Positions 15,557-49,007 of a stretch of DNA of 51,683 bases are shown here, piece after piece. The stretch comes from a virus (Duplodnaviria; Caudoviricetes): positions 1-51,683 of IMG/VR virus record IMGVR_UViG_3300047552_000616, one strand, 5' to 3'. Within the stretch, counting starts at the first letter, position 1; every line of letters begins with the position of its first letter. Made by a program: the position numbers and the translations under genes. Below the pieces are notes generated by a model that saw only the letters and a list, made by a program, of their open reading frames with translations, was not told the DNA's origin and did no database searches.

Positions 15557-17111
15557 AACAATTCCATCTAATAAACTGTAATCCACTTGTTTGTTTTTGT
15601 ATCCGCCTAAATTCAATGGTGAGATCCAATATGGGATTGAATGCTTCCTTACTCTTCAACCATAGCTTCATCTTATATAGCTGACTTTTACCAAGGCTAG
15701 CCCGATGTGTTTTCTCGCTTCGGGCCATTACCTTATATCCCATCAGTTCATGGAAGTAATGAATGCATTGCTTATTGCTGGATGGTAGTAGCTCAAAGCC
15801 AGCTAGGATCTTAATCATCCGCATTATCTGCATCATTTTTCTGTCGTTCTCTTGGATCTTAGCTGTGGCCTTATCTTCATCAAAACAGATGCCCATTAAA
15901 CTATTCACTAGATAAGCATATAGTGCATTGTTAGTGCATTCTATGCTGGACTTCAACCCAGCATCCTTACTCGCCAGTCCATCCAGCCCTTCCTTTACCA
16001 ACATCATCCCATAGATATCCTTGCCATTATATTCCCACAGCTTACGCTCATCCCCGGCATTATGTGGTGCAAAGATACCCTCATCTTTATGGTAAGGTAA
16101 CCATGTTAAGTGACTCATTGCATGGCCAAGAGATTTCTCCACACCAACAAATGCCTTATGGTGGGATATCATCGTATCATATATCTTTCGGCCAAAAGGA
16201 ATCTTGTAGTAGTGTGCCAAGATAAATAAATCAAACATACTATTGTGCACCACTACTTCGTTATCCCTCATTCCCGCAGCCAATGCTCTAACCAAAAGTA
16301 TAGTCCTTTCGCCATAAGCCAGAGAACCATCATAGCGAAATATAGGCACAACAAACACAGAAGGAAATCCAAAGCTGAATCCGATACACCGAAGATTCGG
16401 CCTCTCTTCCATATCCGTTTCGATATCCAAGTATAGTGTTTTGTTTTTCGTGGTAATGAGCGTTTCATAAGCTTCCTCAAATGTGGGATAGATAACATAT
16501 TGAGGTGTGGGATGACATGGAACTTTACCGTTAAAGTTTAGTAGGATATCCTTAACCCGTCGCGTGTCTGTGGTCAGCCAAAAGCGATAATTAGATCGGC
16601 GGGTTTTACCATGATCTTTGATGGACTCATCTTCGGCATCAGCATCCTCTTCTCCATCTTCATTGTATCGTGGTGTAAGTTCACCGTCCGGGATAGCTTC
16701 GGCGGGATTTAGGTAGGGATTCTTATCCTTCTCCCAGTCCTGCATATCGAATGCATCCACGGGTAAGTAGCTTGCAATCGCCGGGATATCTGGATATTCC
16801 TTTAGCGATAACGGAGTGCCACGATGTTGATTGAGACTTAGCGCGGGATCGACTAGAGCTTTAAGGGCATCCGCACCAAGGATGAGGATAGATTTAGTGC
16901 CATCACGGAGTCTCTTGCCTCCGGCCCGATATGCCTCCAAATCCATCACGTCACATTGGAGGTTATTTATTTCGGGACGGAGGCAGTCTTCCCTAAACCA
17001 CAATCCTGCATTGCCAGCTAGGAGTTGCTTGGCTTGCATATCAAATCGCGATGGATTCGATAGGATTATTGTTAATCCTTTGTAGGAGAATTTAGGGGGA
17101 TGGTGGAACAT
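15549..17111 (-). CDS. polA: DNA polymerase A N-terminal fragment: UDG-like domain, 3'-5' exonuclease and thumb
   Basis: UDG-like (NPSRFD..LAGNAG..ILILG..RGT..YLP); ExoI LDIET, ExoII HNSMFD, ExoIII YNGKD; GICFD, SSNKQ, IEFRRIQK. Confidence 0.85.
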   Translation of the reverse strand: MFHHPPKFSYKGLTIILSNPSRFDMQAKQLLAGNAGLWFREDCLRPEINNLQCDVMDLEAYRAGGKRLRDGTKSILILGADALKALVDPALSLNQHRGTPLSLKEYPDIPAIASYLPVDAFDMQDWEKDKNPYLNPAEAIPDGELTPRYNEDGEEDADAEDESIKDHGKTRRSNYRFWLTTDTRRVKDILLNFNGKVPCHPTPQYVIYPTFEEAYETLITTKNKTLYLDIETDMEERPNLRCIGFSFGFPSVFVVPIFRYDGSLAYGERTILLVRALAAGMRDNEVVVHNSMFDLFILAHYYKIPFGRKIYDTMISHHKAFVGVEKSLGHAMSHLTWLPYHKDEGIFAPHNAGDERKLWEYNGKDIYGMMLVKEGLDGLASKDAGLKSSIECTNNALYAYLVNSLMGICFDEDKATAKIQENDRKMMQIMRMIKILAGFELLPSSNKQCIHYFHELMGYKVMARSEKTHRASLGKSQLYKMKLWLKSKEAFNPILDLTIEFRRIQKQTSGLQFIRWNCYE

Positions 17112-21817: not shown

Positions 21818-22114
21818 CTATTTCTTTACGTTCACTTTACTAACATCAATTCCCTTATCTTTAGCCATCTTCAACATCATTGCCATCATCAAATCCATCT
21901 GTCCTGTTGAAGGTCTCGCGCTAGCATTGGGAGATTTCCTGACATTTGCTGTGGGTCTCCTTATCGCGGTGCCTTCTATCGCGGATGACTTCTTAGCTAA
22001 TGTAGATTCAGGTCTACAGAATTTGAAATAGGGCTGAAGTTCAGCTATCAATTCCTGATCCGATATTGCTTCTAGTTCACCAGCGGACTTAGCTAACAGG
22101 AGATCTATGTTCAC
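21818..22114 (-). CDS. Hypothetical protein
   Basis: 98 aa; operon packing. Confidence 0.6.
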   Translation of the reverse strand: MNIDLLLAKSAGELEAISDQELIAELQPYFKFCRPESTLAKKSSAIEGTAIRRPTANVRKSPNASARPSTGQMDLMMAMMLKMAKDKGIDVSKVNVKK

Positions 22115-22797
22115 TAGCTCAACGCTCCTTCCAGTGCACTACTGTATGCTATGATAAATCCGGTGTAGGTTAACTTCAAAACATGAGCATGAGGTATCCC
22201 GGCTATCACTGTGGTAATGTAATCCACATCTGCCTCATACAACTGTAGTCCATTCTTGATTATTGTTGTGCCTTCCTCTGCTGTTAGTAAGAATTCCTCT
22301 AACTCTATCTTCCATTTCTTCTCCGGTTTATCCGGCATGTTAGTTGCGACTTGTCTTGCTCGAAGTTGCTCCATAAAAACTTCATTGCGTTGCTTGACAA
22401 TTTCCTTCCACCTTATCGCGACACAAGAACGCTCCACAGATACGATAGTCCAATCGCGGATTAGTCTGTAGATTCTTGTCGCGGGATTGTCTAGATGCTC
22501 CACTAAGTAACACCATGATTGAGTTATGCGCTGTCGCAATGTCCGGCGTTGCGGGCCATGTGCATCTGGCTTAAGCGGGAATTCAAGTTCGGCTAAGATA
22601 TTGATACTGCCATCGGGGAATAGTAATGTGCTGTCGATATGCTTCTTAAGTTCACTAGCATAGCTATGTCGATAGTATGGATAGTTGCTTAGCGTGCTAC
22701 CACTAGACCGGGGACGATAGTGTCTAGGTCTAACGTAAGTTGTCTTGATTTTAACTAGGTCCATACTAGTCTGTGTCTGATTCTTCCCACGGATCAA
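22114..22797 (-). CDS. Hypothetical protein
   Basis: 227 aa; operon packing. Confidence 0.65.
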   Translation of the reverse strand: MIRGKNQTQTSMDLVKIKTTYVRPRHYRPRSSGSTLSNYPYYRHSYASELKKHIDSTLLFPDGSINILAELEFPLKPDAHGPQRRTLRQRITQSWCYLVEHLDNPATRIYRLIRDWTIVSVERSCVAIRWKEIVKQRNEVFMEQLRARQVATNMPDKPEKKWKIELEEFLLTAEEGTTIIKNGLQLYEADVDYITTVIAGIPHAHVLKLTYTGFIIAYSSALEGALS

Positions 22798-22966
22798 TAG
22801 GATCTAATAGTTTAAGACCTTCCTTTAAGCGAAGAAGGTTTGCTATGTAGCGCATCTCATGAACAGTAAGTGGGATTTCTTCTTGATAATCTTTGTTGAA
22901 GGTATCATCCCAAAGATCACCACATATCTTAGCAGAACAGGCTGCTTCAAATTCTTTTGTTGTCAT
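22766..22966 (-). CDS. Hypothetical protein
   Basis: 66 aa, ATG start. Confidence 0.55.
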   Translation of the reverse strand: MTTKEFEAACSAKICGDLWDDTFNKDYQEEIPLTVHEMRYIANLLRLKEGLKLLDPIDPWEESDTD

Positions 22967-23109
22967 AAACCAAATTTATTCCCAACCAAAATCTCCCCTA
23001 GATACAGACAAGCATCAGGCGAATAGTATATAACATGTTTTGTGTTTTCATCACGACAACTTGAGTTTTAGTTAGCAGTTTGTTACAACTATTGTTTTGG
23101 TTGGGAAAT

Positions 23110-23218
23110 TGGCGAGCGCGGCAGGATTTGAACCTGCAACATGTCTGCCAATTCTGCAAAGTTGACATTGGCTCTGCATCTATTCGGCTTTTGCGTCTTT
23201 ACGTTCCGCCACGCGCAC
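23110..23218 (-). tRNA. Atypical tRNA-like RNA (109 nt) with expanded, non-canonical anticodon/variable region
   Basis: Acceptor GUGCGCG/CGCGCUC+GCCA, D-arm GCG-GAACGUAAAGA-CGC, T-arm GCAGG-UUCAAAU-CCUGC; no standard anticodon arm. Confidence 0.7.
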
Positions 23219-23352
23219 ATAAATTAAACGGTAGCCAGGCGCTGAGCATCTTAGCTACCGGGACATTTATACACCTAAATGTATTTGCCTACTGGGCCTT
23301 GTGCCTTCTGCCCTTACCACTATACTCACAGAAACAACATAACATAAAGCAG

Positions 23353-23487
23353 TGGCGAACTGCCTAGCCTGATTTAGTTTATTGTTAGTAGTCATATAGC
23401 GTGGTCAGTTACTCTACATATTTATTTCACGAAGTTCCTTACGGTTGACTTGGCTCTGGAGACAACTGAATATCAAGCTGACAGAGC
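23353..23487 (-). ncRNA. Candidate structured ncRNA ending CGCCA
   Basis: CUGUC-AGCUUGAU pairs with AUCAGGCU-A-GGCAG; inner UCAGUUG/UAACUGA; CC-GUAA-GG tetraloop. Confidence 0.5.
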
Positions 23488-23496
23488 TTAAATGAA

Positions 23497-23669
23497 TGGC
23501 GACAACGGAGTATGTTTCATGTTCAGTTTTCCGATATAATCGCGGGCCGAAGTTTCTATACAGTTGCCTCGACCGTTAAACAGTCCTCGGAATAAGCGGG
23601 ACTCTCCGCACGATGTCACAAGCATTCTAGAAATGCTTCCAGACTTACGTAGCTTTCGCATTGCCGCCA
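23497..23669 (-). ncRNA. Candidate structured ncRNA ending CGCCA
   Basis: Closing stem UGGCGGCAA/UUGUCGCCA; GC-GAAA-GC, AC-GUAA-GU, AAGCAUU/AAUGCUU and GACUG/CGGUC hairpins. Confidence 0.55.
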
Positions 23670-23682
23670 AAAGTAATATCAC

Positions 23683-24042
23683 CTACCGAATTACAGTCTT
23701 TCCCGTTGGCTTAAATTCCCATTGCTTAATTCCACAGTTAGGCTGCTCAGGTAATGCCAAGATCTTCTGTCCCACTTCCACAGCTTCATCATCCTCTGCC
23801 CATGCTATAATCAAAGCATCGAATCCACTATGCTTGGCCCATAGGAAAGGATTAACATCATCCCGGCCTACCTGACTCTGCAAGTATTCATTAAGCTTGT
23901 TGATCTTTTCGTTGACAGCAGCTTGAGAATATTCTTGTGGGGCTTCAGTCGCGGGCGCTGTAGGTTCCGGCTCAGCTTTAACTTCAGGAATCTCAGCCAG
24001 AGATTTGAGTGTCTTCAATTTACTTAGGTCTAATTTACCCAT
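23683..24042 (-). CDS. Hypothetical protein, first gene after sigma54 promoter
   Basis: 119 aa; A/P/E linker. Confidence 0.65.
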   Translation of the reverse strand: MGKLDLSKLKTLKSLAEIPEVKAEPEPTAPATEAPQEYSQAAVNEKINKLNEYLQSQVGRDDVNPFLWAKHSGFDALIIAWAEDDEAVEVGQKILALPEQPNCGIKQWEFKPTGKTVIR

Positions 24043-24085
24043 ACTATTTTCTTTCGTATAATATTATGCTATTCATTACTCGGCA

Positions 24086-24102
24086 TAGCAAGAACCATGC
24101 CA
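24086..24102 (-). promoter_or_regulatory. sigma54 -24/-12 promoter (ncRNA and replication operon)
   Basis: TGGCATG-GTTC-TTGCTA, intergenic, 44 bp before ATG 24042. Confidence 0.85.
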
Positions 24103-24132
24103 GATATTTGATAGCCTAGTGTTACGTTATCG

Positions 24133-24354
24133 CTAACATCCCCAATTCATCAGTAAGTCATAAGCATTGTATAATTTTCTTAGCCCCTCATATCTACATA
24201 ATACAAAGTCACCATCAGCAAACATACTAAAGTCAGGTATCATTCCATCCCTTGTTATTAGCTTGCCATCTTTAATAATCAATCGGGATGGTTTAGTAAA
24301 TATTTCAGAGATATGTTGAGGTACTATAACTTTTGTTTTCGTTTTCTTTTTCAT
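24133..24354 (-). CDS. Hypothetical protein
   Basis: Likely start MKKKTK at 24354. Confidence 0.55.
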   Translation of the reverse strand: MKKKTKTKVIVPQHISEIFTKPSRLIIKDGKLITRDGMIPDFSMFADGDFVLCRYEGLRKLYNAYDLLMNWGC

Positions 24355-24358
24355 ATTA

Positions 24359-24535
24359 TTAAGGTGCCGGATATTTCTTTGCTGTAAAGTATCCATCTTC
24401 CCATGCTTCGCTCTGAATTTTCTTAATCCAATCTTCTATTGTTTCATTGTTTTGTGCTGTTGATTGAACATCAGTAAAGATCCAATGATTAACTAGAAGT
24501 GCTAGTTCTTCTCTTAATTCAGTGGGTGATTTCAT
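24359..24535 (-). CDS. Small hypothetical protein (58 aa, not in ORF track)
   Basis: MKSPTELREELALLVNHWIF...IKKIQSEAWEDG...; fills the gap; resembles KQIQLDAWKQG in 27711..28064. Confidence 0.55.
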   Translation of the reverse strand: MKSPTELREELALLVNHWIFTDVQSTAQNNETIEDWIKKIQSEAWEDGYFTAKKYPAP

Positions 24536-24540
24536 GTAGC

Positions 24541-25416
24541 TTATTCCATATTAAATATATACTGCGTTATCATACTCTGCAACTGTCGAACATTTCCCAA
24601 CAATGAAAACTCCATCAAACTATCCATTAATGGTTTCCATTCTATGTCATCGGGATCTTCAACCCCATACTTCATCGCGATAGGTTCGATATCTTCTCTG
24701 CGGTTTCGCAATGGCAATATTCTCAACGTAAATGTAGCTAGTCGCCAGTAGAGATCTTCCCTCAACACTGCCATGGGGTTCTGATGTGTAGCTGCTATCA
24801 CCCGTGTGTCGAATGGGATATCTCCTAGTGCTCCAATAGGTCTAGCTTTATGTTCCTGTAAGGCTCTCAATAACTTAGCCTGCAATGGCTTAGGCATATC
24901 TCCAATCTCATCTAGGAATAATGTGCCCTTGTTAGCATAGAATAACAATCCTTCCTTATCCTCATACGCTCCCGTGAAGCTACCTTTCTTGTGACCGAAT
25001 AGCTCGGACTCTACTAGGTAGTCAGGCAAGCTAGTGCAATTCAATGCTACGAAATTCCCGACCCTATTCCCATGCAATGCTCGGGCAATAGTCTCTTTAC
25101 CCGTCCCGGTCTCCCCTAGAATTATCACGGGATGGTTTTCTATGGCTAGCCTGCGGACTATATCTTTCAGCTTAAGCATCTCGGGATTCTTGGTGATGAA
25201 TTTCCTTAGCTCAAATTCACATTCGATACTGGGGATCTTTAGGTCAGTGTATTTGGTTTGGATTCCTCGCCAGAAAGTATTAGCTTGCTGGCGATCACCC
25301 ATTGTGTAGAATCCTTCTACGATTTTAAGTTGCTGTTGAACAATTAGGGGTAAGTGTTCAATGTGTTGGAGGATTGTTAGACCAGATGTTGCTTGTTCGT
25401 GTAGGGGGATAGGCAT
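24541..25416 (-). CDS. sigma54-dependent transcriptional activator (NtrC-family bEBP AAA+), lacking C-terminal HTH
   Basis: GETGTGKE, FVALNC, ESELFGHKKGSFTGA, LFLDEIGDMP, LQAKLLRALQ, RVIAATH, REDLYWRL, PLRNRREDI, GNVRQL; ends ~11 aa later. Confidence 0.95.
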   Translation of the reverse strand: MPIPLHEQATSGLTILQHIEHLPLIVQQQLKIVEGFYTMGDRQQANTFWRGIQTKYTDLKIPSIECEFELRKFITKNPEMLKLKDIVRRLAIENHPVIILGETGTGKETIARALHGNRVGNFVALNCTSLPDYLVESELFGHKKGSFTGAYEDKEGLLFYANKGTLFLDEIGDMPKPLQAKLLRALQEHKARPIGALGDIPFDTRVIAATHQNPMAVLREDLYWRLATFTLRILPLRNRREDIEPIAMKYGVEDPDDIEWKPLMDSLMEFSLLGNVRQLQSMITQYIFNME

Positions 25417-25422
25417 AATGTA

Positions 25423-25716
25423 TTAGTCTTTCAGTTGTTCAACTACTTCGAGTAGTTCATAATTTGTAACAGAAAAATCTTTTATATATTTCTCTGCTTG
25501 TTCTTTTTCTGTGAACAGGAGATTTATATTCTGGCACATAAGAACCCAAAACCTATGTGGTTCAGGTTTGATGCGATAGTCTTCTGGATAACTATTGAAT
25601 ATTGGTTCTGATATATCTTGCCATGTCTCAGCGTTTGCTGACTTTACTTGAATAGTCTTGCCATTTGCATATGCTTCAAACACTGGTAATAATATTTTAA
25701 CTGCTTTTCTTGTCAT
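25423..25716 (-). CDS. Conserved phage hypothetical protein
   Basis: AYANGKTIQ...YRIKPEP motif. Confidence 0.65.
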   Translation of the reverse strand: MTRKAVKILLPVFEAYANGKTIQVKSANAETWQDISEPIFNSYPEDYRIKPEPHRFWVLMCQNINLLFTEKEQAEKYIKDFSVTNYELLEVVEQLKD

Positions 25717-25747
25717 AATGTTATTTGTTACTTGTTATTACTTGTTA

Positions 25748-27022
25748 TTATTTGTTTTGATCCAACTCATCATCTTCAATAAATAATCCCGCCGCTTCTT
25801 CCTCTTCTTCATCCTCTTCCTCATCTCCATCCGCACCTTTCAATAACCTTATGCTTCCCGCCATACTCTCACTGTTAGCATGAGATTGCCCGGCTGCTTC
25901 TAGGATAACATCTTCCCAGCTTTCCTTCTGCCTAACTACTTTCTTTAGGCACTTAAGTTTCATGCTCACTATCGCGGCGACGTGTTCTTCTACTGTGCCC
26001 TTATAGAACAATACAACTTGTGACGTATCACTAAGGCTAGTTAATCGCGGTGCTCGGCCTAAGCCTTGGACTAATTCAATGGCAGAGTATGTTGTGTTGA
26101 GAAATGTTACTCGTTGTCTAGTGGATACCAATGGGATATCTTCTTCATATGCATATCCCGATTCATCTTTCCTTCGGACTTTGTGCTTGGTTAGTTCGTC
26201 AGTGTGATGTAAACTTAGTCCTACTCCACCCGACTTAAATGTGTAGAAACAATACCTGCTTCGGCCCGACTGGAATCTATCTATCTCTTCCTGTCGTTGA
26301 GTCCGGGATTGTGACCCTAAGTTATACCCAGACATATCCCCTAGTCCAGCATCATCCGATTTAAGTTGTTGCTTAATCTTCTTGATTGTTGCTTTCGGGA
26401 TATCATCAAACTTCCCGGACATCATTAATCCAAACACTCGAATAAACTCTGCATTATCAATTCGTTCTGTTTGATTATAGGCTGCATTTCCTCCCCATAT
26501 CAGGGAGATTTCATCTCGCTTTACTTTATATTTCTCTATCAAACATTTAACTGCACGTGCTATTCCTTGTTTGAAGCAGAAGACTGCCACAGGACTTTGA
26601 TCATACTTTGTCCTCGCATCATACATAGCTTCAGCTATTGCTTCAGCTTTACAATTCTCTGCTGCTTCCTTGAACTTCTGCATCTCAGCGAATAGCATGT
26701 AGCCCCTTACCCTGCCATCCAGCTTATCTGCCTTGCTACAAAATTCCATCCACCTTTCCCATGCCGAAGCATAATGCTTACGTTCCCATTCCGTTCTAAA
26801 CTCTAGCAACTGAACACCATTACGAGCATGGAATTGTGGACGTAGATTCTTGATGTCAACTACATGGGGCATGATCTTCTTCATTAGCCTCTCCATAGCT
26901 GATGGAGAATTTTCATCAGGATCTTGCGGGAACGCTATAGCTTTAGCGAATCCAGCCCAGTTTTGGTTAGTGACTTTGCGTTTGGGTGTAGTTATGTTCA
27001 TATCTATATCTATTCTTTCCAT
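25748..27022 (-). CDS. SF2 (SNF2/Strawberry-notch-like) helicase, C-terminal RecA2 fragment
   Basis: AVFCF, IWGG, RQEEIDRFQSG, SGGVGLSLH, QGLGRAPR, GTVEE; acidic tail. Confidence 0.85.
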   Translation of the reverse strand: MERIDIDMNITTPKRKVTNQNWAGFAKAIAFPQDPDENSPSAMERLMKKIMPHVVDIKNLRPQFHARNGVQLLEFRTEWERKHYASAWERWMEFCSKADKLDGRVRGYMLFAEMQKFKEAAENCKAEAIAEAMYDARTKYDQSPVAVFCFKQGIARAVKCLIEKYKVKRDEISLIWGGNAAYNQTERIDNAEFIRVFGLMMSGKFDDIPKATIKKIKQQLKSDDAGLGDMSGYNLGSQSRTQRQEEIDRFQSGRSRYCFYTFKSGGVGLSLHHTDELTKHKVRRKDESGYAYEEDIPLVSTRQRVTFLNTTYSAIELVQGLGRAPRLTSLSDTSQVVLFYKGTVEEHVAAIVSMKLKCLKKVVRQKESWEDVILEAAGQSHANSESMAGSIRLLKGADGDEEEDEEEEEAAGLFIEDDELDQNK

Positions 27023-27333
27023 TTACCTAGTGTCTTTAAGAATGCTTCGGCTCGTTGGCGGGAGGTGGCATTGATGGTTCTGTCGAGAATGAAAGGCTCA
27101 TTTGGTCTTAGTGTCTCCATCAAGACGTGATTGATGCTTACGCGAATGGAGCCTGGTTGAGACATGATCGCCTCGTGCATGGCATTGAGATCTGCGCAGT
27201 AGTTGGGAACATAGGACCAAACGTCGCCCTCGCAATCTGGTTTGTATCCTTCTGGACCATTAACTCTCACAGGATCGATGTCATGCCACCCACAGCACTC
27301 CGCAATCGCGATATTGATTTCGGTGTCGGTCAT
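27010..27333 (-). CDS. Phage hypothetical (ABA-sandwich-like) between helicase fragments
   Basis: INIAIAE..GW...VPNYCADLNAMHEA...ATSRQRAEAFL. Confidence 0.6.
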   Translation of the reverse strand: MTDTEINIAIAECCGWHDIDPVRVNGPEGYKPDCEGDVWSYVPNYCADLNAMHEAIMSQPGSIRVSINHVLMETLRPNEPFILDRTINATSRQRAEAFLKTLGKWKE

Positions 27334-27707
27334 ACATTCACACTGGCATAAAAGTTATCAATTGCTTTCTGTGTTGATTCGAGCCTCTGGTATTCTGGAA
27401 TCTCTTTTGAGAACTCCACTTCTAATTCAACAAGTGCATTGCATAGATCGCAAGCGATGTTCTTCCATGTTGTGGTGTCTGGCACTTGCATAAGTGGAGG
27501 ACTATCCTTGAAGTCCCGTAACCGTTCCCCAAGAATGTTAGAATACTGAACCATGATTTCATGTTGTCGCTTGAGTAAAATCTTGTGCCGATCAGACACC
27601 CCGAAGAGCAAGCGTCCAGAGATGAAGTCATACAGGCGGGCAATTTTGGAATCCAGTTCCTGCTTTTCCGTTGCTACCCGTTCTTCTACATTTTCAGATA
27701 TTTTCAT
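27330..27707 (-). CDS. crAss001_48-like coiled-coil protein between helicase fragments
   Basis: RVATEKQELDSKIARLYDFI...LLKRQHEIMVQYSNILGERL. Confidence 0.6.
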   Translation of the reverse strand: MKISENVEERVATEKQELDSKIARLYDFISGRLLFGVSDRHKILLKRQHEIMVQYSNILGERLRDFKDSPPLMQVPDTTTWKNIACDLCNALVELEVEFSKEIPEYQRLESTQKAIDNFYASVNV

Positions 27708-27710
27708 ATG

Positions 27711-28064
27711 TTACTTGATTTGTTTTATTTGTTGTTGAGAGATAAGAATTAGAATAATGATTACCAAAACAATCTGAACCAAATTAAATGGTTCTTTTTG
27801 AAGACCTGAAAGCCATCCCAGAACAACCAGCAGTAAAACAATGGTTATCATGGTTCCATTGCAAATGTCAGCAGCATCCGTCATCCCCTGCTTCCATGCG
27901 TCGAGTTGGATTTGTTTGACAAATTCCATTAAGTTCTCTGCGCTATGCTCTGATTCATAGGAGAATGTTAGTGATGATAGACTTGTAGCTTTCTTTTCTT
28001 TGGTGTATTGAAAGTCAGGTATAACTGTATCTTCATTCATTACCCACTCTTCTGCTGTTTTCAT
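27711..28064 (-). CDS. Hypothetical protein with C-terminal TM hairpin between helicase fragments
   Basis: MKTAEEW...QLDAWKQG followed by two hydrophobic segments. Confidence 0.55.
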   Translation of the reverse strand: MKTAEEWVMNEDTVIPDFQYTKEKKATSLSSLTFSYESEHSAENLMEFVKQIQLDAWKQGMTDAADICNGTMITIVLLLVVLGWLSGLQKEPFNLVQIVLVIIILILISQQQIKQIK

Positions 28065-28071
28065 ATCTTAT

Positions 28072-29058
28072 TTATTCTTGCTTATAGCTAGCCACTTCTT
28101 CAACATTCATCTCTACCCCACACCCAACACTAACAACCTTAGCTTCACTAACTTTAGTGAATGGTGTTGCGCTGGCGAATACGAATCTTAACAAAGGATG
28201 TCCTATGTCACATGCTGCCTGGAATACTTTGCTTTGCATACTCTTCTCATTCTTTACAGCCTGACATTCATCTAGGATAAACAATACAGGATGGAATAAC
28301 TTCCATTTGATTTCATCTTCCTCCTGCCCATATCTAATTACTGTCTTCCAATCAATATACATCTCCCCAAAGCTAGCCCGGAGTTGATCGTAGTTGGTTA
28401 GCAAGACATCTCGTTTCATATCTAGTCCGAACCAATTAGTTAGCACTCTTCTAGTTTGTTCCACGATACTAGCTTTTGTCACGTAGAATACACTATATGG
28501 GCATAAGTGTTTGCCTTTGATGACTCCCGACTCTATGCTATCACTAATGAACTGACCCAATACGAATGTCTTACCTGTGCCTACACCTGCCGGAATTAGT
28601 GCGCCACGTAGGTTATCTATCCACAATCTAGTGAATAGATTTCTTGCTGCTTCTCGCTGTGGTTTGTAGAGAAACAATCCCGGCTTAGCTTTAGGGGATT
28701 TGTGTAGCTTCAGCTTAGTCGTTGCGTTATCTTCGGGGAACTTATCGCCACATGTAGTAGAGAATACTGTTTCGTAACTAGAGTCCGGGAAGCCTACAGT
28801 ATCTCCGGGGAAATGCAGGTTAGCTAGTTCGGGAGGGAGTTTGGATCTATCAAGCCTAGGGGATTGGGATTCTTCTTTCGCCATCGCACTACTCGTCGCA
28901 GGCAAGCTAGCTTTTGTTGTAGTAATGAGGGCTGTTGAACTTTTGCTTTCTTCTTGTTTGTTTTTGTTTTCATTTTTATTGCCTGGTAACCTTAAGTTAT
29001 TCCAATTGATTGGCGTAGGTTTAGGTAGAATTGTTTTCATTTCATATATTCTTCTCAA
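28072..29058 (-). CDS. SF2 helicase, N-terminal ATPase (RecA1) fragment (likely start 29040)
   Basis: Q-motif LYKPQ, Walker A GVGTGKT, TNYDQLR, Walker B ILDECQ, motif III ASATPF. Confidence 0.85.
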   Translation of the reverse strand: MRRIYEMKTILPKPTPINWNNLRLPGNKNENKNKQEESKSSTALITTTKASLPATSSAMAKEESQSPRLDRSKLPPELANLHFPGDTVGFPDSSYETVFSTTCGDKFPEDNATTKLKLHKSPKAKPGLFLYKPQREAARNLFTRLWIDNLRGALIPAGVGTGKTFVLGQFISDSIESGVIKGKHLCPYSVFYVTKASIVEQTRRVLTNWFGLDMKRDVLLTNYDQLRASFGEMYIDWKTVIRYGQEEDEIKWKLFHPVLFILDECQAVKNEKSMQSKVFQAACDIGHPLLRFVFASATPFTKVSEAKVVSVGCGVEMNVEEVASYKQE

Positions 29059-29494
29059 TTTCTCCGAGGTATTTATCTAGTGGAAATCCCGGTAAGTTCT
29101 TGCGAATCATTTCGGGATTCTTTGTCATGGCATTAACCATCATCAAGAACATGGGACTGCTGGCAATGTCAATACCTTGATGTTCCTTCATCCACTTAGC
29201 CATTGCTAATGCTAGTCCACCTTGAACAAGTGCTTCCTTATTGCGCTTAGCCATCCCGGCCTTAGCGCGATCTTGTTTCTCCTTGTCAGATTCCCAGTCC
29301 GTTCGGTTCCAAATTACTGGTGCTTTGTCGGGAGAGTCTGGCTTGATTAATACCAGTGTTGGTGGCAGTGAACTATTTAACTTTTCCAATGCTTCAACTA
29401 CTGGCTTACTTGGGCAATATCTATCGCGACCACGTAAGAGGAAGTGATGGAATTCTTCTATGTCTGTGAAGCGAAAGGTTATTGTTATTTCCAT
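29042..29494 (-). CDS. Hypothetical protein
   Basis: ATG at 29494, MEITITF. Confidence 0.6.
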   Translation of the reverse strand: MEITITFRFTDIEEFHHFLLRGRDRYCPSKPVVEALEKLNSSLPPTLVLIKPDSPDKAPVIWNRTDWESDKEKQDRAKAGMAKRNKEALVQGGLALAMAKWMKEHQGIDIASSPMFLMMVNAMTKNPEMIRKNLPGFPLDKYLGEIEKNI

Positions 29495-29498
29495 TAGG

Positions 29499-29714
29499 CT
29501 AGCCTTTCTTTTCTTCAAAGTTAATACACCCAAAGTTCTCACCCATTAAGACATCACTATCCCATCCACATACAATACCAATATCGCGAGAACTTCCATC
29601 AAACCTTGTGATATTGGGGGGAACGATAGAGCATGAGCCTAGGGGATGGCTAGTCATGTCTGCAAATTCTGTTGTTGATTTATAGTGTTTGCAATTCTTA
29701 CAGATAGGTTTCAT
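29499..29714 (-). CDS. Small Cys-rich metal-binding protein
   Basis: CKNCKHY...GSC...FGCINFE. Confidence 0.65.
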   Translation of the reverse strand: MKPICKNCKHYKSTTEFADMTSHPLGSCSIVPPNITRFDGSSRDIGIVCGWDSDVLMGENFGCINFEEKKG

Positions 29715-29715
29715 A

Positions 29716-30096
29716 TTAGATTAGCCGTTCTTCTATCTTAACATATATTGTTTGTGGTTCAAAGGATCTTTCCTTGAAGTTTTCTATCCAAGATTCCATT
29801 GCAGTATGTGTATCATACCATACAGCATAGCATGGATCATCTGGATCAAGATGTGGATAGGAATATTCCAAACATGAATATTCTCTACTCCATCTTATCT
29901 GTAACTCTATTCCACCCTCTAGCTTTTCACCATCAAAAGCTATTGTTAGTTTAATATCTTTTGGAAGATCTTTCTTCTCTATGATAGTGGGGAAGAATTT
30001 CCACACAAAGTCAGAGCATATGAATGGAGAATCATATTGTGGACTATAGTATGCTCCATGATAACTGTGGAGAAATAGATCAATAGATTGTTTCAT
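29716..30096 (-). CDS. Hypothetical protein
   Basis: 126 aa; operon packing. Confidence 0.6.
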   Translation of the reverse strand: MKQSIDLFLHSYHGAYYSPQYDSPFICSDFVWKFFPTIIEKKDLPKDIKLTIAFDGEKLEGGIELQIRWSREYSCLEYSYPHLDPDDPCYAVWYDTHTAMESWIENFKERSFEPQTIYVKIEERLI

Positions 30097-30105
30097 GTTA
30101 TGGTA

Positions 30106-30426
30106 TTAGCCTTTCTTAGCCTTAGCCTTCCCCTTCCCACCAAACACATAAGCTTGCCATGCTTTCCATACACTCTGGGCTTTCTCCCCTGTATAGCTTA
30201 AGCTATGGTTTGCTGTGAGTTGGAGATATAATACGGGTGTCCAGATATCATAGATGCCTAGATTCTTAGCCATCAAGATATCCTTAGCTGTTCCCAATGG
30301 ATATCCTCTAGCTGTGGGAATTACCGGCCTTGTGTCCATTCGCATCCCGTGTTGGTTTGCCCACATTAGTTTGGCCCATTGGACATGGCGTAGGTTGACT
30401 ACTGCTTTGTTGTCTATGATTTTCAT
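30106..30426 (-). CDS. Hypothetical protein
   Basis: 106 aa. Confidence 0.6.
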   Translation of the reverse strand: MKIIDNKAVVNLRHVQWAKLMWANQHGMRMDTRPVIPTARGYPLGTAKDILMAKNLGIYDIWTPVLYLQLTANHSLSYTGEKAQSVWKAWQAYVFGGKGKAKAKKG

Positions 30427-30519
30427 ACTCGTAATGGCGATCTTCTTTATCTTGTGCTTTAGGTTGTAGCTTAGGGGATTCAGGTTTGAATCTATCGAAG
30501 AAGTTAGGGGATGGTTTGT

Positions 30520-30924
30520 TCATGCGATAGTATGATTGGTTTCATATGATGGATAAATTAACTCTGCGATTGGTGTAATGGAATCACATTCAAGAGCATG
30601 TTCACAGCCATAAGCAGGTCGCTTATAATTAAATGGCGATGACAGACTATAAACAGTGTCTGGTGCCAACTTAACTCCGGTTGCCCGACAAAGAAAGACG
30701 CGACGGTTTTCTCTTGGTACTAGAAGAAATTCTCCACATAATTCCTTGTCAATGTCCATTCCAAAAGCAAACAATCCAAACTTCCAGCCTTTACGTTTCC
30801 TTGTTGTCTTGCCTATGGCATAGTGTTTGGTGAATCTTTTGTTGTCTCTGCATGAATTAGTGTAGAGTGATGTTTGATCTGTTCTTGTAATCTTATAGAC
30901 TATAGTGGTAGTTTGTTTATTCAT
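30520..30924 (-). CDS. Hypothetical protein
   Basis: 134 aa. Confidence 0.6.
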   Translation of the reverse strand: MNKQTTTIVYKITRTDQTSLYTNSCRDNKRFTKHYAIGKTTRKRKGWKFGLFAFGMDIDKELCGEFLLVPRENRRVFLCRATGVKLAPDTVYSLSSPFNYKRPAYGCEHALECDSITPIAELIYPSYETNHTIA

Positions 30925-30930
30925 AAAATG

Positions 30931-31272
30931 TTAACAGAATTCCAATGTCTTTTTCCAGTTAGCACATTCTTCCATTCCTTTTGCAAGAAGAAGTGCTTGT
31001 TGCTTATCATAATCAGTATCATCCCAGCTTTCGATTAGTCTCCTTAATCGCGGAGCGACTTTCTTGCAAAGAGTGTGTGAAATTGTTCCATCACAATCTG
31101 AATGATTAAGTAATATGCATATAGGATCTTGGATATTTTTCCATGATAAATCTCCTCCAAATCCTTGCATTGAATCAAGATTAATACCTATTTCTTTAGC
31201 TAGCTTTCGTCTGAATGCACTGAAGCCAGAGTAAGACCAATGTGCTTCTGCTCCATTAAAATCTAGTCCCAT
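30931..31272 (-). CDS. Conserved phage hypothetical protein
   Basis: WSYSGFSAFRRKLA...LLNHSDCDG. Confidence 0.65.
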   Translation of the reverse strand: MGLDFNGAEAHWSYSGFSAFRRKLAKEIGINLDSMQGFGGDLSWKNIQDPICILLNHSDCDGTISHTLCKKVAPRLRRLIESWDDTDYDKQQALLLAKGMEECANWKKTLEFC

Positions 31273-31276
31273 AATA

Positions 31277-31525
31277 TTATGTTTCCTTTCTCACTTCCCA
31301 ATGCACACAACCAAACAATGCGCCAACACTAATGGTAATCCCATCCGTTAGTGCTGTGCTTTCCGCGCTGTGGTCACAGACTACCTGACTACTGTATAGT
31401 TCTGTGACATCATATTGGAATGCCATCTTATGCTCACAAGTTCCATGTGTTGGAACGGGAGCATGTTTATCTATTGCTATTAGTCGTTGCCAATGCTGGC
31501 AATCTTTACATCTGTTGGGGTTCAT
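31277..31525 (-). CDS. Small Cys-rich metal-binding protein, paralog of 29499..29714
   Basis: CKDCQHW...GTC...FGCVHWE; ATG at 31525. Confidence 0.6.
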   Translation of the reverse strand: MNPNRCKDCQHWQRLIAIDKHAPVPTHGTCEHKMAFQYDVTELYSSQVVCDHSAESTALTDGITISVGALFGCVHWEVRKET

Positions 31526-31685
31526 TGCTCTTGTTCGCTTTCTCTTTCCAAGTTTCCACAATCTTTTCATCCCGTGCCTTGATATATGTTCCCATGCTAG
31601 CTGGCCACATAACAGCGGCGCGATGGTGGTTAGATTGCTTCTGTTGTTTCTTGTGTTCTGTGTATTCTTGTTTAGTCATAAATCA

Positions 31686-31871
31686 TTATCGAGTCCTTAA
31701 TGCTTGGCGAAGCTTGGGGATATTTACTTCAATGACATAGTTTAATCCTTGTTCTATACATTCTCCAACAAGGAATTCTTTTGTTGTTTCTTTTTGGCGC
31801 TTTAAGTCACGGATTTCATCTGTTCTTTTTTCGTATTGGTTAAGTGCATCACGAAGTTTATCTGTGTTCAT
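31686..31871 (-). CDS. Hypothetical coiled-coil protein
   Basis: 61 aa. Confidence 0.55.
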   Translation of the reverse strand: MNTDKLRDALNQYEKRTDEIRDLKRQKETTKEFLVGECIEQGLNYVIEVNIPKLRQALRTR

Positions 31872-31918
31872 ATGTGTAGGTAGTATAGGTAGTATGTAGA
31901 TTAGTTAATAGAAACACT

Positions 31919-31962
31919 AAAACCCTATAGGGATTTGATGTTATCTCTACCCTATAGGGTTT
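31919..31962 (-). terminator. Intrinsic terminator
   Basis: AAACCCTATAGGG...CCCTATAGGGTTTT after 31999..32559; each arm is itself palindromic. Confidence 0.75.
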
Positions 31963-31998
31963 GCGTTGCTATGGATGGTAGACTGTTGCTAGCTAGCT

Positions 31999-32559
31999 TT
32001 AGGCCGCAGCTTCAGCAGCAGGTTCACCTTCCTTGCGCTTGCGTGACTTCCTGTCAGCTGCTTCCTTCAACGCCTGAGCCTCAGCTTGCAACTGCATCAC
32101 CCGACCAAGCATCTCGATAGTAGCCGTACCACTGTTAATCGCGGCGGTAGCATCAGCCGCTGCCTTGTTCATCTCCGCGAACTTATCATCAAACAAGGCC
32201 AACAGTTCGGCCTTAGTTTCAGTCCGGGAGCTGAGTTCACTCCAGAACTTAGCAACCTTATCCAGATCCAATGCGCCTGCTGGATCTGTGGCATCTTCCA
32301 TGACAGTCTGTGCCATCTGACGCACTTTGGCTGTCAGGTAGTCAATGATAGTTTCCACGCCGAAGAACTTGACAAGGTTATCCCAATTCCCCTTGTCAAA
32401 AAACTTAGGTGATGGCATGTAGAAATACTCCGCAGGCTGTCCTTCCTTCACTCGTTTCTTGTCCTCAACGAGCACGACACTTACGCCATTGCGTTCAATG
32501 GGCAATGGTTCAAGCGTTACGGGAGTAGCAGTCGCGGGGGTAGTGTTATTGTCTGGCAT
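31999..32559 (-). CDS. Hypothetical protein with its own promoter and terminator (probably highly expressed)
   Basis: 186 aa, Ala-rich helical, basic tail RKSRKRK; A-rich leader. Confidence 0.75.
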   Translation of the reverse strand: MPDNNTTPATATPVTLEPLPIERNGVSVVLVEDKKRVKEGQPAEYFYMPSPKFFDKGNWDNLVKFFGVETIIDYLTAKVRQMAQTVMEDATDPAGALDLDKVAKFWSELSSRTETKAELLALFDDKFAEMNKAAADATAAINSGTATIEMLGRVMQLQAEAQALKEAADRKSRKRKEGEPAAEAAA

Positions 32560-32670
32560 ATGTTTTATTTACTTGTTTATCTTGTTTGTTTACTCGGACT
32601 ATGTAAGTTAATAGCTTTGTGTCTACACACGTAGATTAAGTTATTAACTAAATTCTATAATGGATAGCTT

Positions 32671-32687
32671 TAGCAAAAAGCATGCCA
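32671..32687 (-). promoter_or_regulatory. sigma54 -24/-12 promoter
   Basis: TGGCATG-CTTT-TTGCTA, intergenic, upstream of 32559. Confidence 0.85.
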
Positions 32688-32730
32688 TGTTGTGAGATAG
32701 GTTGAGGATACGTTAACGGGTAAAGATAGC

Positions 32731-32892
32731 CTACTCTCTTTCAATCAAATACAATATTCCACTTGCTATCATCACAATTCCCATTAGACTAAGTCCCAAT
32801 GTGTGATATTCATAGGCTCTGTATATGGCTAGACTGCCGGTAACAATTAAACTTAAGCCAAATAGGAGATTAAGTTTTAGGAGAGCTTTCAT
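32731..32892 (-). CDS. Small two-TM membrane protein (53 aa, not in ORF track)
   Basis: MKALLKLNLLFGLSLIVTGSLAIY...LGLSLMGIVMIASGILYLIERE; ATGA overlap. Confidence 0.6.
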   Translation of the reverse strand: MKALLKLNLLFGLSLIVTGSLAIYRAYEYHTLGLSLMGIVMIASGILYLIERE

Positions 32893-33143
32893 TCAATCTC
32901 TATTGTATCAGCTATATCATAGCTTACATTGTCGTTTGTATAGCGTCCATCCCTATCTTCATCATACCTAAGATTGTGGAATTTAGAATCGAGCTGTTCA
33001 ATCCATTCAGATACAGCATCACGATTTGATGCCATAACTATGAATTGTTCTGTATGCTTAACATCATCTGATACTGTGATCCATGACAATGTTATGAGAT
33101 AGGGAAGCTTAAGTTCAACTGTGATGGGCATAAATCCTTTCAA
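32889..33143 (-). CDS. Hypothetical protein
   Basis: 84 aa acidic ORF. Confidence 0.55.
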   Translation of the reverse strand: MKGFMPITVELKLPYLITLSWITVSDDVKHTEQFIVMASNRDAVSEWIEQLDSKFHNLRYDEDRDGRYTNDNVSYDIADTIEIE

Positions 33144-33306
33144 TGTGGATATTCTTACGGCTACCGGTTATCCACACGGAGCATTGGATATGTTGCTGAT
33201 TAGGTCGCGACGGTTGAAGCATGGCCTTAGCTTTCCGGCCACTTCGCACCGATTGTGTTACTGGCTTGCTGCCATTGACGATTCTGGTTTTCGATTGCTT
33301 GGTCAT
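33115..33306 (-). CDS. Small basic hypothetical protein
   Basis: MTKQSKTRIV...; start at 33306. Confidence 0.4.
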   Translation of the reverse strand: MTKQSKTRIVNGSKPVTQSVRSGRKAKAMLQPSRPNQQHIQCSVWITGSRKNIHIERIYAHHS

Positions 33307-33442
33307 ATGTTTCTCTACTTTCTCTTTCCCTTTCACCACAGGGATAGCATAGGTTTTTGTGTTGGGGATGTCTGCAGCTGATAATGCAGCCACAGTAATT
33401 GCATAGGCGGTTGTTGCTCACGTTATTGGATCTCCAAGTCAT
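33227..33442 (-). CDS. Small zinc-finger-like protein
   Basis: CNYCG...LCYPCG. Confidence 0.45.
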   Translation of the reverse strand: MTWRSNNVSNNRLCNYCGCIISCRHPQHKNLCYPCGERERESRETYDQAIENQNRQWQQASNTIGAKWPES

Positions 33443-33505
33443 ATGGCCATCTTGCTATGGGAGTTAATGCGAATTCTTCAATTGTGTGGTTATTCATAAC
33501 TTTTC

Positions 33506-33693
33506 TTTAATCTCACCAGAAAACTAATCCCCGGAGGGAATTACTATCTACATTACGGTCATGCGTTATACAATAACTAACTAACTAACTAACTAATCCA
33601 CGATAACAACTCAGTCAACTTTTGTAAGTGTCGTTGAAGTTGAGGGGATACTAACAGGGGATATTTGGGGATTAGTTTTCTGGGAAGATTAAA
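33506..33693. repeat. Long inverted repeat enclosing a (TAAC)n tandem repeat
   Basis: tttaatct-ca-ccagaaaactaatcccc / ggggattagttttctgg-ga-agattaaa; taactaactaactaactaactaa at ~33574-33596. Confidence 0.8.
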
Positions 33694-33729
33694 TTAATAT
33701 TTAATCTTCTTTGGTAGTAATATTAACTA

Positions 33730-33918
33730 CTAAATATCTTTACTATTAAGTATAACTGTTGCTATACTATCTCGAAAATCTATAAAAGCATCTGTAGACA
33801 AAGACCAATATATGGTAGCATTGATCTCTTTCTTATCATACTTTTCTTTGATAGTATTTTGTAGCTTAATGTAGTTAGCTTTGTGCTTTCGGATTTTATT
33901 TATTGTTGTTTTGTTCAT
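33730..33918 (-). CDS. Hypothetical protein
   Basis: MNKTTINKIRKH..., ATG at 33918. Confidence 0.55.
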   Translation of the reverse strand: MNKTTINKIRKHKANYIKLQNTIKEKYDKKEINATIYWSLSTDAFIDFRDSIATVILNSKDI

Positions 33919-33998
33919 AAGAAAGGGGAAAGGGCAAGCTACTGTCACGTTAGTTGCCCCTTTTGTTGTTATTTAAATGGCCTAAGTGCTAAGTGCTA

Positions 33999-34014
33999 AG
34001 CACATAGAATGCCA
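33999..34014 (-). promoter_or_regulatory. Candidate sigma54 promoter
   Basis: TGGCATT-CTAT-GTGCT, GG-N10-GC, intergenic, upstream of 33918. Confidence 0.55.
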
Positions 34015-34536: not shown

Positions 34537-34554
34537 AAAGTCTAAGGTGGTGCG

Positions 34555-34609
34555 GAAAAAGAATAAGGGCGGGAGAGTAGGCTTTATCAGCCCTAACTCT
34601 CCCGCCCTT
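34555..34609 (-). terminator. Strong intrinsic terminator after first early gene
   Basis: AAGGGCGGGAGAGT...ACTCTCCCGCCCTT followed by ATTCTTTTT. Confidence 0.8.
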
Positions 34610-35790: not shown

Positions 35791-35807
35791 TGGCATGGGG
35801 GGTGCTA
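35791..35807 (+). promoter_or_regulatory. sigma54 promoter for packaging/head operon
   Basis: TGGCATG-GGGG-GTGCTA, GG-N10-GC, upstream of terS. Confidence 0.7.
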
Positions 35808-41848: not shown

Positions 41849-41865
41849 TGGCATGTTTATTGCTA
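41849..41865 (+). promoter_or_regulatory. sigma54 promoter of major capsid gene
   Basis: TGGCATG-TTTA-TTGCTA directly after the terminator. Confidence 0.9.
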
Positions 41866-42019: not shown

Positions 42020-43330
42020 ATGCCTAGTTATGCGATTCCGGCACTAGATGCCAATTATTGCTCAGGATGGAATGAGCAGGACATTAACCTTTACAATAAA
42101 CTTGATTTCTACTTTGCTAAAATGCAAGTAGAGATGAAGAAAGGTTGGCCGCTCTGGAGTAAACTTCTTGGTAAAATCCGATGGCAGCCCAATATGGGTA
42201 ATACCATGCGTGGTGTTACTAAGATGCCCTCGCCCCATCTTCGTCAGTTCGCAGTTCCATCGCCAATTCTTAATGGAACTCTCCCTAAGAAAGATATTCT
42301 TGATGTTCGTGAGCGTAAAGAAGATGTGACGATTTATCGTCATCGCTTTGAGTCTCAGATCATGAACTTCATTCCGAGCTTTCGTGACTTCTTCAAAGAT
42401 CACGTATCTGCTCACTCTACTGATATTGCTGAAAAGCAACTGAGGTATGATGATATCTATATTCGTGGTAACATCTTCCATCAAGCTCCGTTTGTATTCC
42501 TGCCTGATTCTGCTCAGGCTGCTGGTAGCTTGATTGATGCTCCTTATGGCGTGGGTGATGATGCCGGACGGAGTGAAGCAAATGGATATCAGTCTAGCAA
42601 TACAGCTAAAACTAAGGTTTGGCTGCAAGCTAAGTTGGCTGAGATTGGAACTCCCGGCAATCTGAGCTTTAATGCTCTGAATCTGCTGCTAACTATTATG
42701 GAAAACGATCTGCGTATTCCATACTATAGTGGTAGTGATATGCCGAAGGATGATGCTGGACTGAGTGGTAAGTATGTTCTTATCTGCTCAGGGGAAGCTT
42801 GGAACCAATTCCTGTATGATCCCTGGATGCTTGCTAATAAACCTATTGATATGGATGTAGTCCACAATGGGTGGAAAGGTAGCTTCTTTGGTCGCATTAC
42901 AACTAAGATTGAAGATCTTCCTCTTCGTATCTCGGCTGATGGAACATTCCCCAATCCCCAAACTCGGGAAGTTAATCCGAATGCTTATAACTACCAGGAA
43001 ACTATCAACAATCCTGCATACAATAATGCCCCCTATGAAGTGGCATTCCTTGCTGGTGCTCAGGGTTATGATAGTATTGAGATTGGACCGCCGCCGTCGC
43101 CATTCGCGGGTGGAATGCCTGATGGTTTTGGCAAGATGATTTGGAATGGCGAAATTGTCATGACCAAGAATATCTTGATTCCTTGCACAGATGATCGCAA
43201 TCAGCTTACGTATGATACCAATAACTATGGTGAATACCTTAAGTTGATCTCTCAGGTTACTTATGGTATTATGCCTAAGCAACGTCGAAATATCATTCCG
43301 ATTATCTTCCAGCGTAAGCGTGGGGCATAA
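42020..43330 (+). CDS. Major capsid protein
   Basis: 436 aa; W.PNMGNTMRGV; position after scaffold; dedicated promoter; T-ending codon bias. Confidence 0.8.
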   Translation: MPSYAIPALDANYCSGWNEQDINLYNKLDFYFAKMQVEMKKGWPLWSKLLGKIRWQPNMGNTMRGVTKMPSPHLRQFAVPSPILNGTLPKKDILDVRERKEDVTIYRHRFESQIMNFIPSFRDFFKDHVSAHSTDIAEKQLRYDDIYIRGNIFHQAPFVFLPDSAQAAGSLIDAPYGVGDDAGRSEANGYQSSNTAKTKVWLQAKLAEIGTPGNLSFNALNLLLTIMENDLRIPYYSGSDMPKDDAGLSGKYVLICSGEAWNQFLYDPWMLANKPIDMDVVHNGWKGSFFGRITTKIEDLPLRISADGTFPNPQTREVNPNAYNYQETINNPAYNNAPYEVAFLAGAQGYDSIEIGPPPSPFAGGMPDGFGKMIWNGEIVMTKNILIPCTDDRNQLTYDTNNYGEYLKLISQVTYGIMPKQRRNIIPIIFQRKRGA

Positions 43331-48991: not shown

Positions 48992-49007
48992 TGGCATGTG
49001 AAATGCT
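48992..49007 (+). promoter_or_regulatory. sigma54 promoter for tail operon
   Basis: TGGCATG-TGAA-ATGCT, GG-N10-GC, intergenic, before ATG 49024. Confidence 0.7.

Follow-up and report, generated by a model that had tools for sequence, protein, structure and literature searches.

A phage-encoded member of the sigma54 activator family and the candidate sigma54-type promoters that accompany it in a clade of uncultivated phages

RNA polymerase (RNAP) that carries sigma54 can bind its promoters, but their opening requires an AAA+ activator, known as a bacterial enhancer-binding protein (bEBP). The sigma54 promoter consensus is TGGCAC-N5-TTGCW, with the GG and GC doublets 10 nucleotides (nt) apart. 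A few natural bEBPs, namely FlgR of Helicobacter, CtcC of Chlamydia and FleT of Rhodobacter, have no C-terminal helix-turn-helix (HTH) and are thought to be enhancer-free. Phages are known to time their genes by means of their own RNA polymerases, their own sigma factors, or proteins that redirect sigma70. Here we describe a bEBP gene carried by a virus, IMG/VR record IMGVR_UViG_3300047552_000616. The window analysed is that whole record of 51,683 base pairs (bp), and the gene is as follows:

24541..25416, minus strand: phage bEBP gene, product of 291 amino acids (aa), with a predicted helical N-terminal extension (aa 1-72), the AAA+ core, a short lid (aa 237-291) and no DNA-binding domain

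Across a clade of uncultivated phages this activator is paired with sigma54-type sites, which suggests that these phages time their own genes via host sigma54 RNA polymerase. It is quite probable that the activator, despite having no DNA-binding domain, opens host sigma54-RNAP complexes at the middle and late promoters of the phage. The support for this is all computational.

The closest described proteins are fragments and cellular regulators. DctD250, an AAA+-only fragment, activates sigma54 transcription constitutively, enhancer-free and from solution, although more weakly than an enhancer-bound activator (PMC3844500). Like DctD250 and PspF 1-275, the phage bEBP has the central AAA+ domain with no receiver and no HTH, and PspF AAA+ structures are among its fold matches. 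However, those two are laboratory truncations of cellular regulators, whereas the phage bEBP is a natural full-length product. It also differs from them in its 72-aa N-terminal helical extension, its shorter lid and its own target promoters. FlgR, CtcC and FleT are cellular, and FlgR and CtcC keep a phosphorylation receiver, whereas the phage bEBP has no recognisable regulatory domain.

Three phages come close in part. The original study of Pseudomonas phage YuA (Yuavirus) reportedly placed sigma54 promoters in the virion and lysis region. That part of YuA transcription runs on host sigma54 is stated in PMC10914365, citing Ceyssens et al. 2008b. YuA is in the deposited phage collection that was searched and gave no tblastn match to the phage bEBP at E <= 1e-5, so it encodes no detectable bEBP. 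Reliance on host sigma54 would be common to YuA and the window phage, whereas a phage-encoded bEBP is found on the window phage's side only. Bdellovibrio phage phi1422 has a gene annotated 'sigma54-type regulator', for which its authors suggest a stress role, the account of that gene reporting no promoters (PMC3391216). This regulator is known by its annotation and is set beside the phage bEBP by description; no Bdellovibrio record is among the 66 tblastn matches in the collection. Those 66 matches, all below 60% identity and many on bacterial-looking contigs filed as phage (atoC, glnG, prpR, zraR), were not used. The third is Htm (Gp204) of Mosigvirus AV110, an AAA+ protein described as structurally bEBP-like and without a C-terminal HTH, which changes host transcription (10.64898/2026.10.06.757011). 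As described there, Htm has no GAFTGA loop and has DD for DE in Walker B, whereas the phage bEBP has GSFTGA and DE, and promoters in its own genome. Literature searches found no characterised phage-encoded sigma54 activator driving phage promoters. An earlier, sequence-only reading of this DNA had known of no characterised phage that does this, which the searches bear out, but YuA, phi1422 and Htm are partial precedents for it.

The phage protein is a genuine bEBP, found in a new setting. Its AAA+ sigma54-interaction core (aa 74-231, window 24724-25197) matches the Pfam family Sigma54_activat (PF00158) at E 3.5e-54 and 183.4 bits against a cut-off of 20.2, over profile positions 2-167 of 168, and a six-frame search recovers the family at 177.6 bits. 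Walker A (GETGTGKE) and Walker B (LFLDEIG) are present, with G101, G104, G106, K107, D169 and E170 invariant in 28 aligned sequences. So are G145, F147, T148, G149 and A150 of the sigma54-contact loop, GSFTGA (aa 145-150). The second position of this loop varies between S and A in cellular homologs too, and the full-length cellular bEBPs P0042 and P0057 also have GSFTGA. R219, R225, N275 and R277, from the REDLYWRL and GNVRQL stretches, are invariant in the same alignment; we take residues of these stretches to have arginine-finger and sensor II roles. The sequence-only reading had called the bEBP AAA+ motifs intact, and every string that it named (GETGTGKE, ESELFGH, GSFTGA, DEIG, REDLYWRL and GNVRQL) is in the translation.

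The predicted fold points the same way. An AlphaFold model made with the 28-sequence alignment has a mean predicted local distance difference test (pLDDT) score of 89.2. The listed PDB fold matches are all bEBP AAA+ domains (FleQ, NtrC4, FlrC, NtrC1, PspF, ZraR, LuxO, NifA and DmpR). For the first five, Foldseek comparison of the model gave E-values from 1.6e-22 to 2e-17 and target template-modelling (TM) scores of 0.74-0.81 for isolated cores. Other family libraries are less specific. NCBIfam matches are limited to the central core of many bEBP equivalogs, with RtcR the best, and all are far under their cut-offs, so the phage bEBP is not an ortholog of any named activator. PHROG 7998, whose function is unassigned, matches at E 7.4e-40 over positions 17-230 of its 339, and thus relatives of the phage bEBP already sit unannotated in phage databases.

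Little surrounds the core. The C-terminus falls directly after the sensor II helix, and no HTH_8, receiver or GAF domain was matched by Pfam at E <= 1 across the 291 aa. This agrees with the earlier description of an N-terminus of ~70 aa without receiver or GAF and of a protein that stops before any Fis-type HTH. The N-terminal extension is modelled as a few helices and is poorly conserved in sequence and length among homologs. No Pfam family matched aa 1-73. Foldseek against the PDB found no recognisable DNA-binding fold in the extension, the best E being 4.1 on a single-sequence model with a pLDDT of 62.1.

The other half of the pairing is a set of sites in the phage genome. The window was searched with the pattern TGGCAY-N6-TGCW, using 100 shuffles as the control. 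There are six sites, compared with a shuffle mean of 0.50; the largest shuffle count was 3 and none of the 100 shuffles reached 6. All six are intergenic, although non-coding sequence makes up just 8.4% of the genome, and all are co-oriented with the next gene, 17-156 nt before its start codon. They are listed here with the open reading frames (ORFs) that they precede:

24087..24102, minus strand: site TGGCATGGTTCTTGCT, intergenic, 45 nt upstream of ORF 23683-24042 and 439 nt downstream of the bEBP gene
32672..32687, minus strand: site TGGCATGCTTTTTGCT, intergenic, 113 nt upstream of ORF 31999-32559, on the same strand as the bEBP gene and upstream of it
33999..34014, minus strand: site TGGCATTCTATGTGCT, weaker, intergenic, 51 nt upstream of ORF 33730-33948
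35791..35806, plus strand: site TGGCATGGGGGGTGCT, in a divergent intergenic region, 69 nt upstream of ORF 35875-36378 and the terminase gene 36375-38345
41849..41864, plus strand: site TGGCATGTTTATTGCT, 156 nt upstream of the probable major capsid gene
48992..49007, plus strand: site TGGCATGTGAAATGCT, intergenic, 17 nt upstream of ORF 49024-49518 and the Laminin_G_3-domain ORF 49518-50696

The units headed by these sites are the terminase operon, the capsid gene, a distal structural (tail-region) unit and three minus-arm units. The site at 24087 heads the arm with the exonuclease, DNA polymerase and primase genes. The small ORF at 35875-36378 has orthologs in related phages, and a site lies upstream of it in five of the six phages compared. 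On this evidence the proposed sigma54-type promoters are judged to be real, as far as sequence can tell. A further candidate at 23135-23150 (minus strand), TGGCAG...TTGCA, was rejected as a promoter since it lies inside a tRNA-like element (see below). Looser matches at 3332 and 6391 have one and two mismatches, respectively, and lie within coding sequence.

In a search for enhancers, a crude word count found no 8-mer common to more than two of the six upstream regions in the window. As a separate observation, TATATAAC-like words are repeated 10-50 nt upstream of some sites in two relatives, G003 (loci L021-L023; for example 34413, 39463 and 46369) and G001, and not in the window. Perhaps another factor recognises these words, or they are sigma70 -10 elements that overlap.

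The target gene with the best support is that of the probable capsid protein:

42020..43330, plus strand: gene for a 436-aa product, probably the major capsid protein, without a match in Pfam or PHROG

The ESM Atlas links the 436-aa protein to N4-gp56-type capsid clusters, with a feature score of 0.97 and structural TM values of 0.61 (query) and 0.83 (target). A terminator-like hairpin with a T-run lies at ~41808-41846 (plus strand), directly upstream of the capsid promoter, with -22.1 kcal/mol for the 70-nt segment. The promoter therefore looks insulated from read-through. A single-protein search found no capsid relatives in viral contigs, and an alignment of six orthologs then retrieved 38 viral loci with 29-58% identity. 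In every one of the 38 there is exactly one site on the coding strand 110-267 nt upstream of the start of the capsid match, and the rest of these loci contain just two further motif matches. With the window and one contig from a metagenome-assembled genome (MAG) the count is 40 of 40 capsid loci, representing 33 distinct 58-nt sequences. The only conserved block in the 33 is TTGGCAyg..a.tTGCTat, the flanks being free. No 7-mer is common to more than nine of these 33 upstream regions, again by a crude word count with no motif finder.

The capsid leader has features of its own. At 41865-42019 (plus strand) there are two hairpins, 41887-41905 and 41922-41942, whose loops contain GGGCA and each of which follows a TGCCACT-like word. 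The corresponding unit of the relatives consists of TTGCTTCTA or GCCTCTAAT and, after it, a hairpin whose loop is AAGGGCAT; the word occurs in 21 of the 33 distinct leaders. No GGGCA-loop hairpins were seen after the other sigma54-type sites of six genomes, and the hairpins match no Rfam family. They may be a translational operator or a protein-binding RNA.

Is the activator gene found where the sites are? A scan of viral contigs gave 13 records with activator homologs. Nine have short HTH-less homologs of 241-304 aa, in genomes of 36-46% guanine plus cytosine (GC). The motif is present in all nine (8, 7, 9, 6, 8, 3, 4, 6 and 2 sites), compared with 0-1 per record for the reversed pattern. Five of them are whole related genomes, with 6-9 sites each, and three of the four others (3, 4, 6 and 2 sites) are incomplete; the lower counts fall in incomplete records. 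Six of the nine short-form loci have a site within ~100 nt after the activator gene and on its strand. The remaining four records have long homologs of 361-704 aa, HTH-bearing with C-terminal extensions, and 1, 1, 0 and 1 sites; these homologs lie in sequence of 63-64% GC or in a provirus. The long homologs are cellular-type regulators in unrelated contexts and do not test the hypothesis.

The reverse comparison starts from the capsid gene. A Sigma54_activat frame of 202-379 aa was found in 20 of 31 further capsid-bearing records, including all 19 that are at least 90% complete, and the 11 records with no match are 14-74% complete. This search left out L060 and the already-known L032, L040, L041, L043, L056 and L062. 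Altogether, 26 near-complete genomes (G000-G005 and G007 included) have both the activator gene and the capsid promoter. In a FastTree phylogeny of 134 proteins, 45 of the 48 short ones form one clade that contains no long protein (support 0.65, midpoint root). The sample for this tree was 121 homolog proteins and 13 locus ORFs, with duplicates kept and trimmed to query residues 72-288, and it is biased to the query's nearest matches.

The sequence-only reading had predicted that the gene would co-occur with -24/-12 motifs, and this prediction has held at each level: six sites compared with 0.5 in the window, nine of nine short-homolog records, 40 of 40 capsid loci, and the gene in 19 of 19 near-complete genomes. 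Relatives with the gene and without the motifs, which that reading had named as counter-evidence, were looked for; the only candidates are the four records whose homologs are long, HTH-bearing and cellular-type. Its central proposal, that the phage supplies an activator to run its own genes on host sigma54, is thus made probable by comparative evidence. The grounds for it are domain identity, fold, motif enrichment, intergenic placement, orientation, positional conservation and clade co-occurrence.

How might the system work? The phage bEBP would be an activator cut down to its AAA+ motor, forming rings and hydrolysing ATP as its family does. At the six phage -24/-12 promoters host sigma54-RNAP would wait as closed complexes, and opening would follow once the GSFTGA loop remodels the sigma54-carrying polymerase. 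The phage would supply the activator and the promoters, and no sigma54. Indeed, a domain search of the phage genome found no Sigma54_DBD, Sigma54_CBD or Sigma70_r2, and Sigma54_DBD was not found in five relatives. With no DNA-binding domain, the activator probably acts from solution without enhancers, like the engineered AAA+-only bEBPs. Such action is consistent with the absent domain and with the lack of a common word upstream of the promoters. Enhancer-free activation would be weaker, and this might be offset by making much activator protein. The activator would then switch transcription from early genes to middle and late ones. Such a switch is in keeping with the position of its gene, which closes an upstream unit and has a sigma54-type site after it. 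That the protein hydrolyses ATP and forms rings, that it depends on sigma54 and not on enhancers, and when it acts are all inferred.

Several observations do not sit easily with this proposal. The -12 element is GTGCT, not TTGCT, in two of the window sites. The pattern itself was used to select the capsid sites, which makes the conservation of the searched positions partly a matter of construction. This does not apply to the T that precedes TGG, the G that follows TGGCAY, the T that precedes TGC and the A/T that follows TGC, and these fit the canonical sigma54 consensus. Two of the six sites, those at 32672 and 33999, precede the activator gene in its own direction of transcription, and the circuit therefore has to be started from a different promoter. 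The stretch 22000-37000 shows no excess of sigma70-like sites (31 compared with 40.4 expected), and one 10-of-12 match at 35279-35251 (minus strand) is no more than a candidate. The lid is short, and AAA_lid_14 at aa 237-287 scores 20 bits, under its cut-off of 27. The 72-aa extension might bind a signal or DNA, which leaves constitutive and enhancer-independent action as no more than presumptions. The earlier claim of enhancer independence thus keeps the support of the absent DNA-binding domain and of the upstream regions with no common word, and is qualified by the extension.

The presence of sigma54 in the host is itself an assumption. The only lead to the host is L068, a phage-sized contig of 49,908 bp in a Deltaproteobacteria bacterium MAG and the sole match to the capsid alignment among 185,579 species genomes. 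In L068, too, the promoter precedes the capsid gene, at a distance of 168 nt. Its MAG has a Sigma54_DBD (rpoN-like) frame at E 5e-66 and nine bEBP-like matches, the best being a 253-aa frame. Binning can mislead, so this MAG is a weak host lead only. Two sequence runs with short pieces from related strains were flagged 'probably DNA' and are uninformative on transcript starts or habitat.

What if the protein is chiefly a tool for reprogramming the host? In this scenario it would fire host sigma54 regulons (e.g., those for membrane stress, RNA repair, nitrogen or motility), and the phage sites would be secondary. AAA+-only bEBPs can indeed be promiscuous, and DctD250 is reported to have raised 16 of 20 predicted sigma54 operons in Salmonella (PMC3844500). 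The best NCBIfam score is that of the RtcR core, and Htm, the bEBP-like protein of phage AV110, is reported to alter more than 700 host genes (10.64898/2026.10.06.757011). However, RtcR is matched solely in the AAA+ core that such proteins share, and its 210 bits compare with a cut-off of 650. Host reprogramming leaves unexplained both the 6-9 sites per genome and the site kept ahead of the capsid gene at 40 of 40 loci. It is also compatible with activation of phage promoters, as a side effect of it rather than an alternative. As the chief role of the protein we regard it as improbable, even though it fares best of the alternatives.

Another scenario is that host bEBPs serve the phage promoters, with the phage protein as a modulator of those bEBPs that might work through mixed rings or by titrating sigma54. 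The case for this is YuA, which depends on sigma70 and sigma54 (PMC10914365, citing Ceyssens 2008b) yet has no tblastn match to the phage bEBP. Sigma54 use without a detectable bEBP means that phage sigma54 promoters can work without a phage bEBP. However, the catalytic and sigma54-contact residues are all invariant in the phage clade, which is unexpected of a decoy. Host bEBPs also normally need enhancers near each promoter, and any 7-mer is common to at most nine of the 33 upstream sequences. Finally, the activator gene is in 19 of 19 near-complete genomes. This scenario is therefore very improbable.

Least probable of all is that the motif is the site of an unrecognised phage factor or polymerase rather than a sigma54 promoter, with the AAA+ protein acting on another substrate: most phage proteins here have no family match and a search for T7-type RNA polymerases was uninformative (its control matched nowhere), but the block TTGGCAYG-N4-TTGCT fits the canonical sigma54 consensus beyond the searched positions, the motif co-occurs with a protein whose sole recognisable function is sigma54 activation, and a 1736-aa protein of the phage resembles internal-core or polyvalent virion proteins and no polymerase (an Atlas lead only).

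What the proposal of a phage activator at phage promoters would mean depends on how far it extends. The bEBP family itself is known; what is new as a system is a phage activator together with a clade-conserved phage sigma54 regulon. If true, supplying just the activator while relying on the sigma54 of the host would be a distinct strategy for a phage, a new class of temporal control. Sigma54 promoters are silent without an activator, giving a tight off-state and a sharp switch that would suit capsid and packaging genes. In its broadest form the idea is that a clade of ~50-kilobase, apparently virulent, uncultivated phages runs its middle and late programme on host sigma54, with one constitutive enhancer-free activator as the single timing switch. 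Capsid, packaging and replication operons would be shut until the activator accumulates, and all host sigma54 regulons would fire as a by-product. We regard the case for this broad form as evenly balanced. The firing of host sigma54 regulons upon infection is a prediction in its own right, and if it holds the phage bEBP would be a natural counterpart of the engineered promiscuous activators. PHROG 7998, an unannotated phage family, would gain a function, and a conserved regulon would be defined for a clade of dark-matter phages, the structural genes of which have no family match. Perhaps a compact enhancer-free activator of ~290 aa and its short promoters could also serve as an orthogonal expression switch.

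The genome that carries the system is complete: the record has a direct terminal repeat of 123 nt and an estimated completeness of 100% (IMG/VR record). A plus-strand gene arm runs from 35875 across the record ends to 11665. A minus-strand arm runs from ~35248 to 11637 and carries helicase pieces, the activator, an exonuclease, a family A DNA polymerase and a primase. For the majority of the proteins there is no family match at all. Two further genes deserve mention:

36375-38345, plus strand: terminase large subunit gene, 27-31% identity to Akkermansia phage terminases
6455-11665, plus strand: gene of the 1736-aa protein, no Pfam or PHROG match, with Atlas features of large polyvalent or internal-core virion proteins at scores of 0.94-0.95 (a lead only)

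The identity to the Akkermansia phage terminases is too distant for naming a host. In the deposited phage collection megablast found no close DNA relative of the window, and tblastn found no match to the capsid and portal proteins. Among the five whole relatives the kinship is plainer, with 27 window proteins having an ortholog in at least one of them at 22-57% identity and in conserved order.

Some genes of the minus-strand arm are divided. The helicase is apparently split, with the C-terminal part at 25748-27022 and the N-terminal ResIII/DEAD part at 28072-29058 (both minus strand). Both ORFs match one single ORF of 630-771 aa in relatives G001-G004, whereas G005 is split likewise. Three small ORFs (27010-28064) lie between the two parts in the window. 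The family A DNA polymerase is also two ORFs, 13808-14836 and 15549-17111 (both minus strand), in the window and in all five whole relatives. These are ~700 nt apart in the window, with small ORFs at 14808-15224 and 15221-15616 between them.

The tRNA-like element at 23113-23218 (minus strand) lies within a non-coding stretch of ~500 nt downstream of the site at 24087. Its acceptor stem, D arm and T arm are complete, and 49 nt replace the 17 nt of the anticodon arm. The Rfam tRNA model scores it at 26.5 bits, compared with a gathering score of 29 (E 0.0039 in a small search), and ARAGORN calls an intron-bearing tRNA there at its 70% threshold only.

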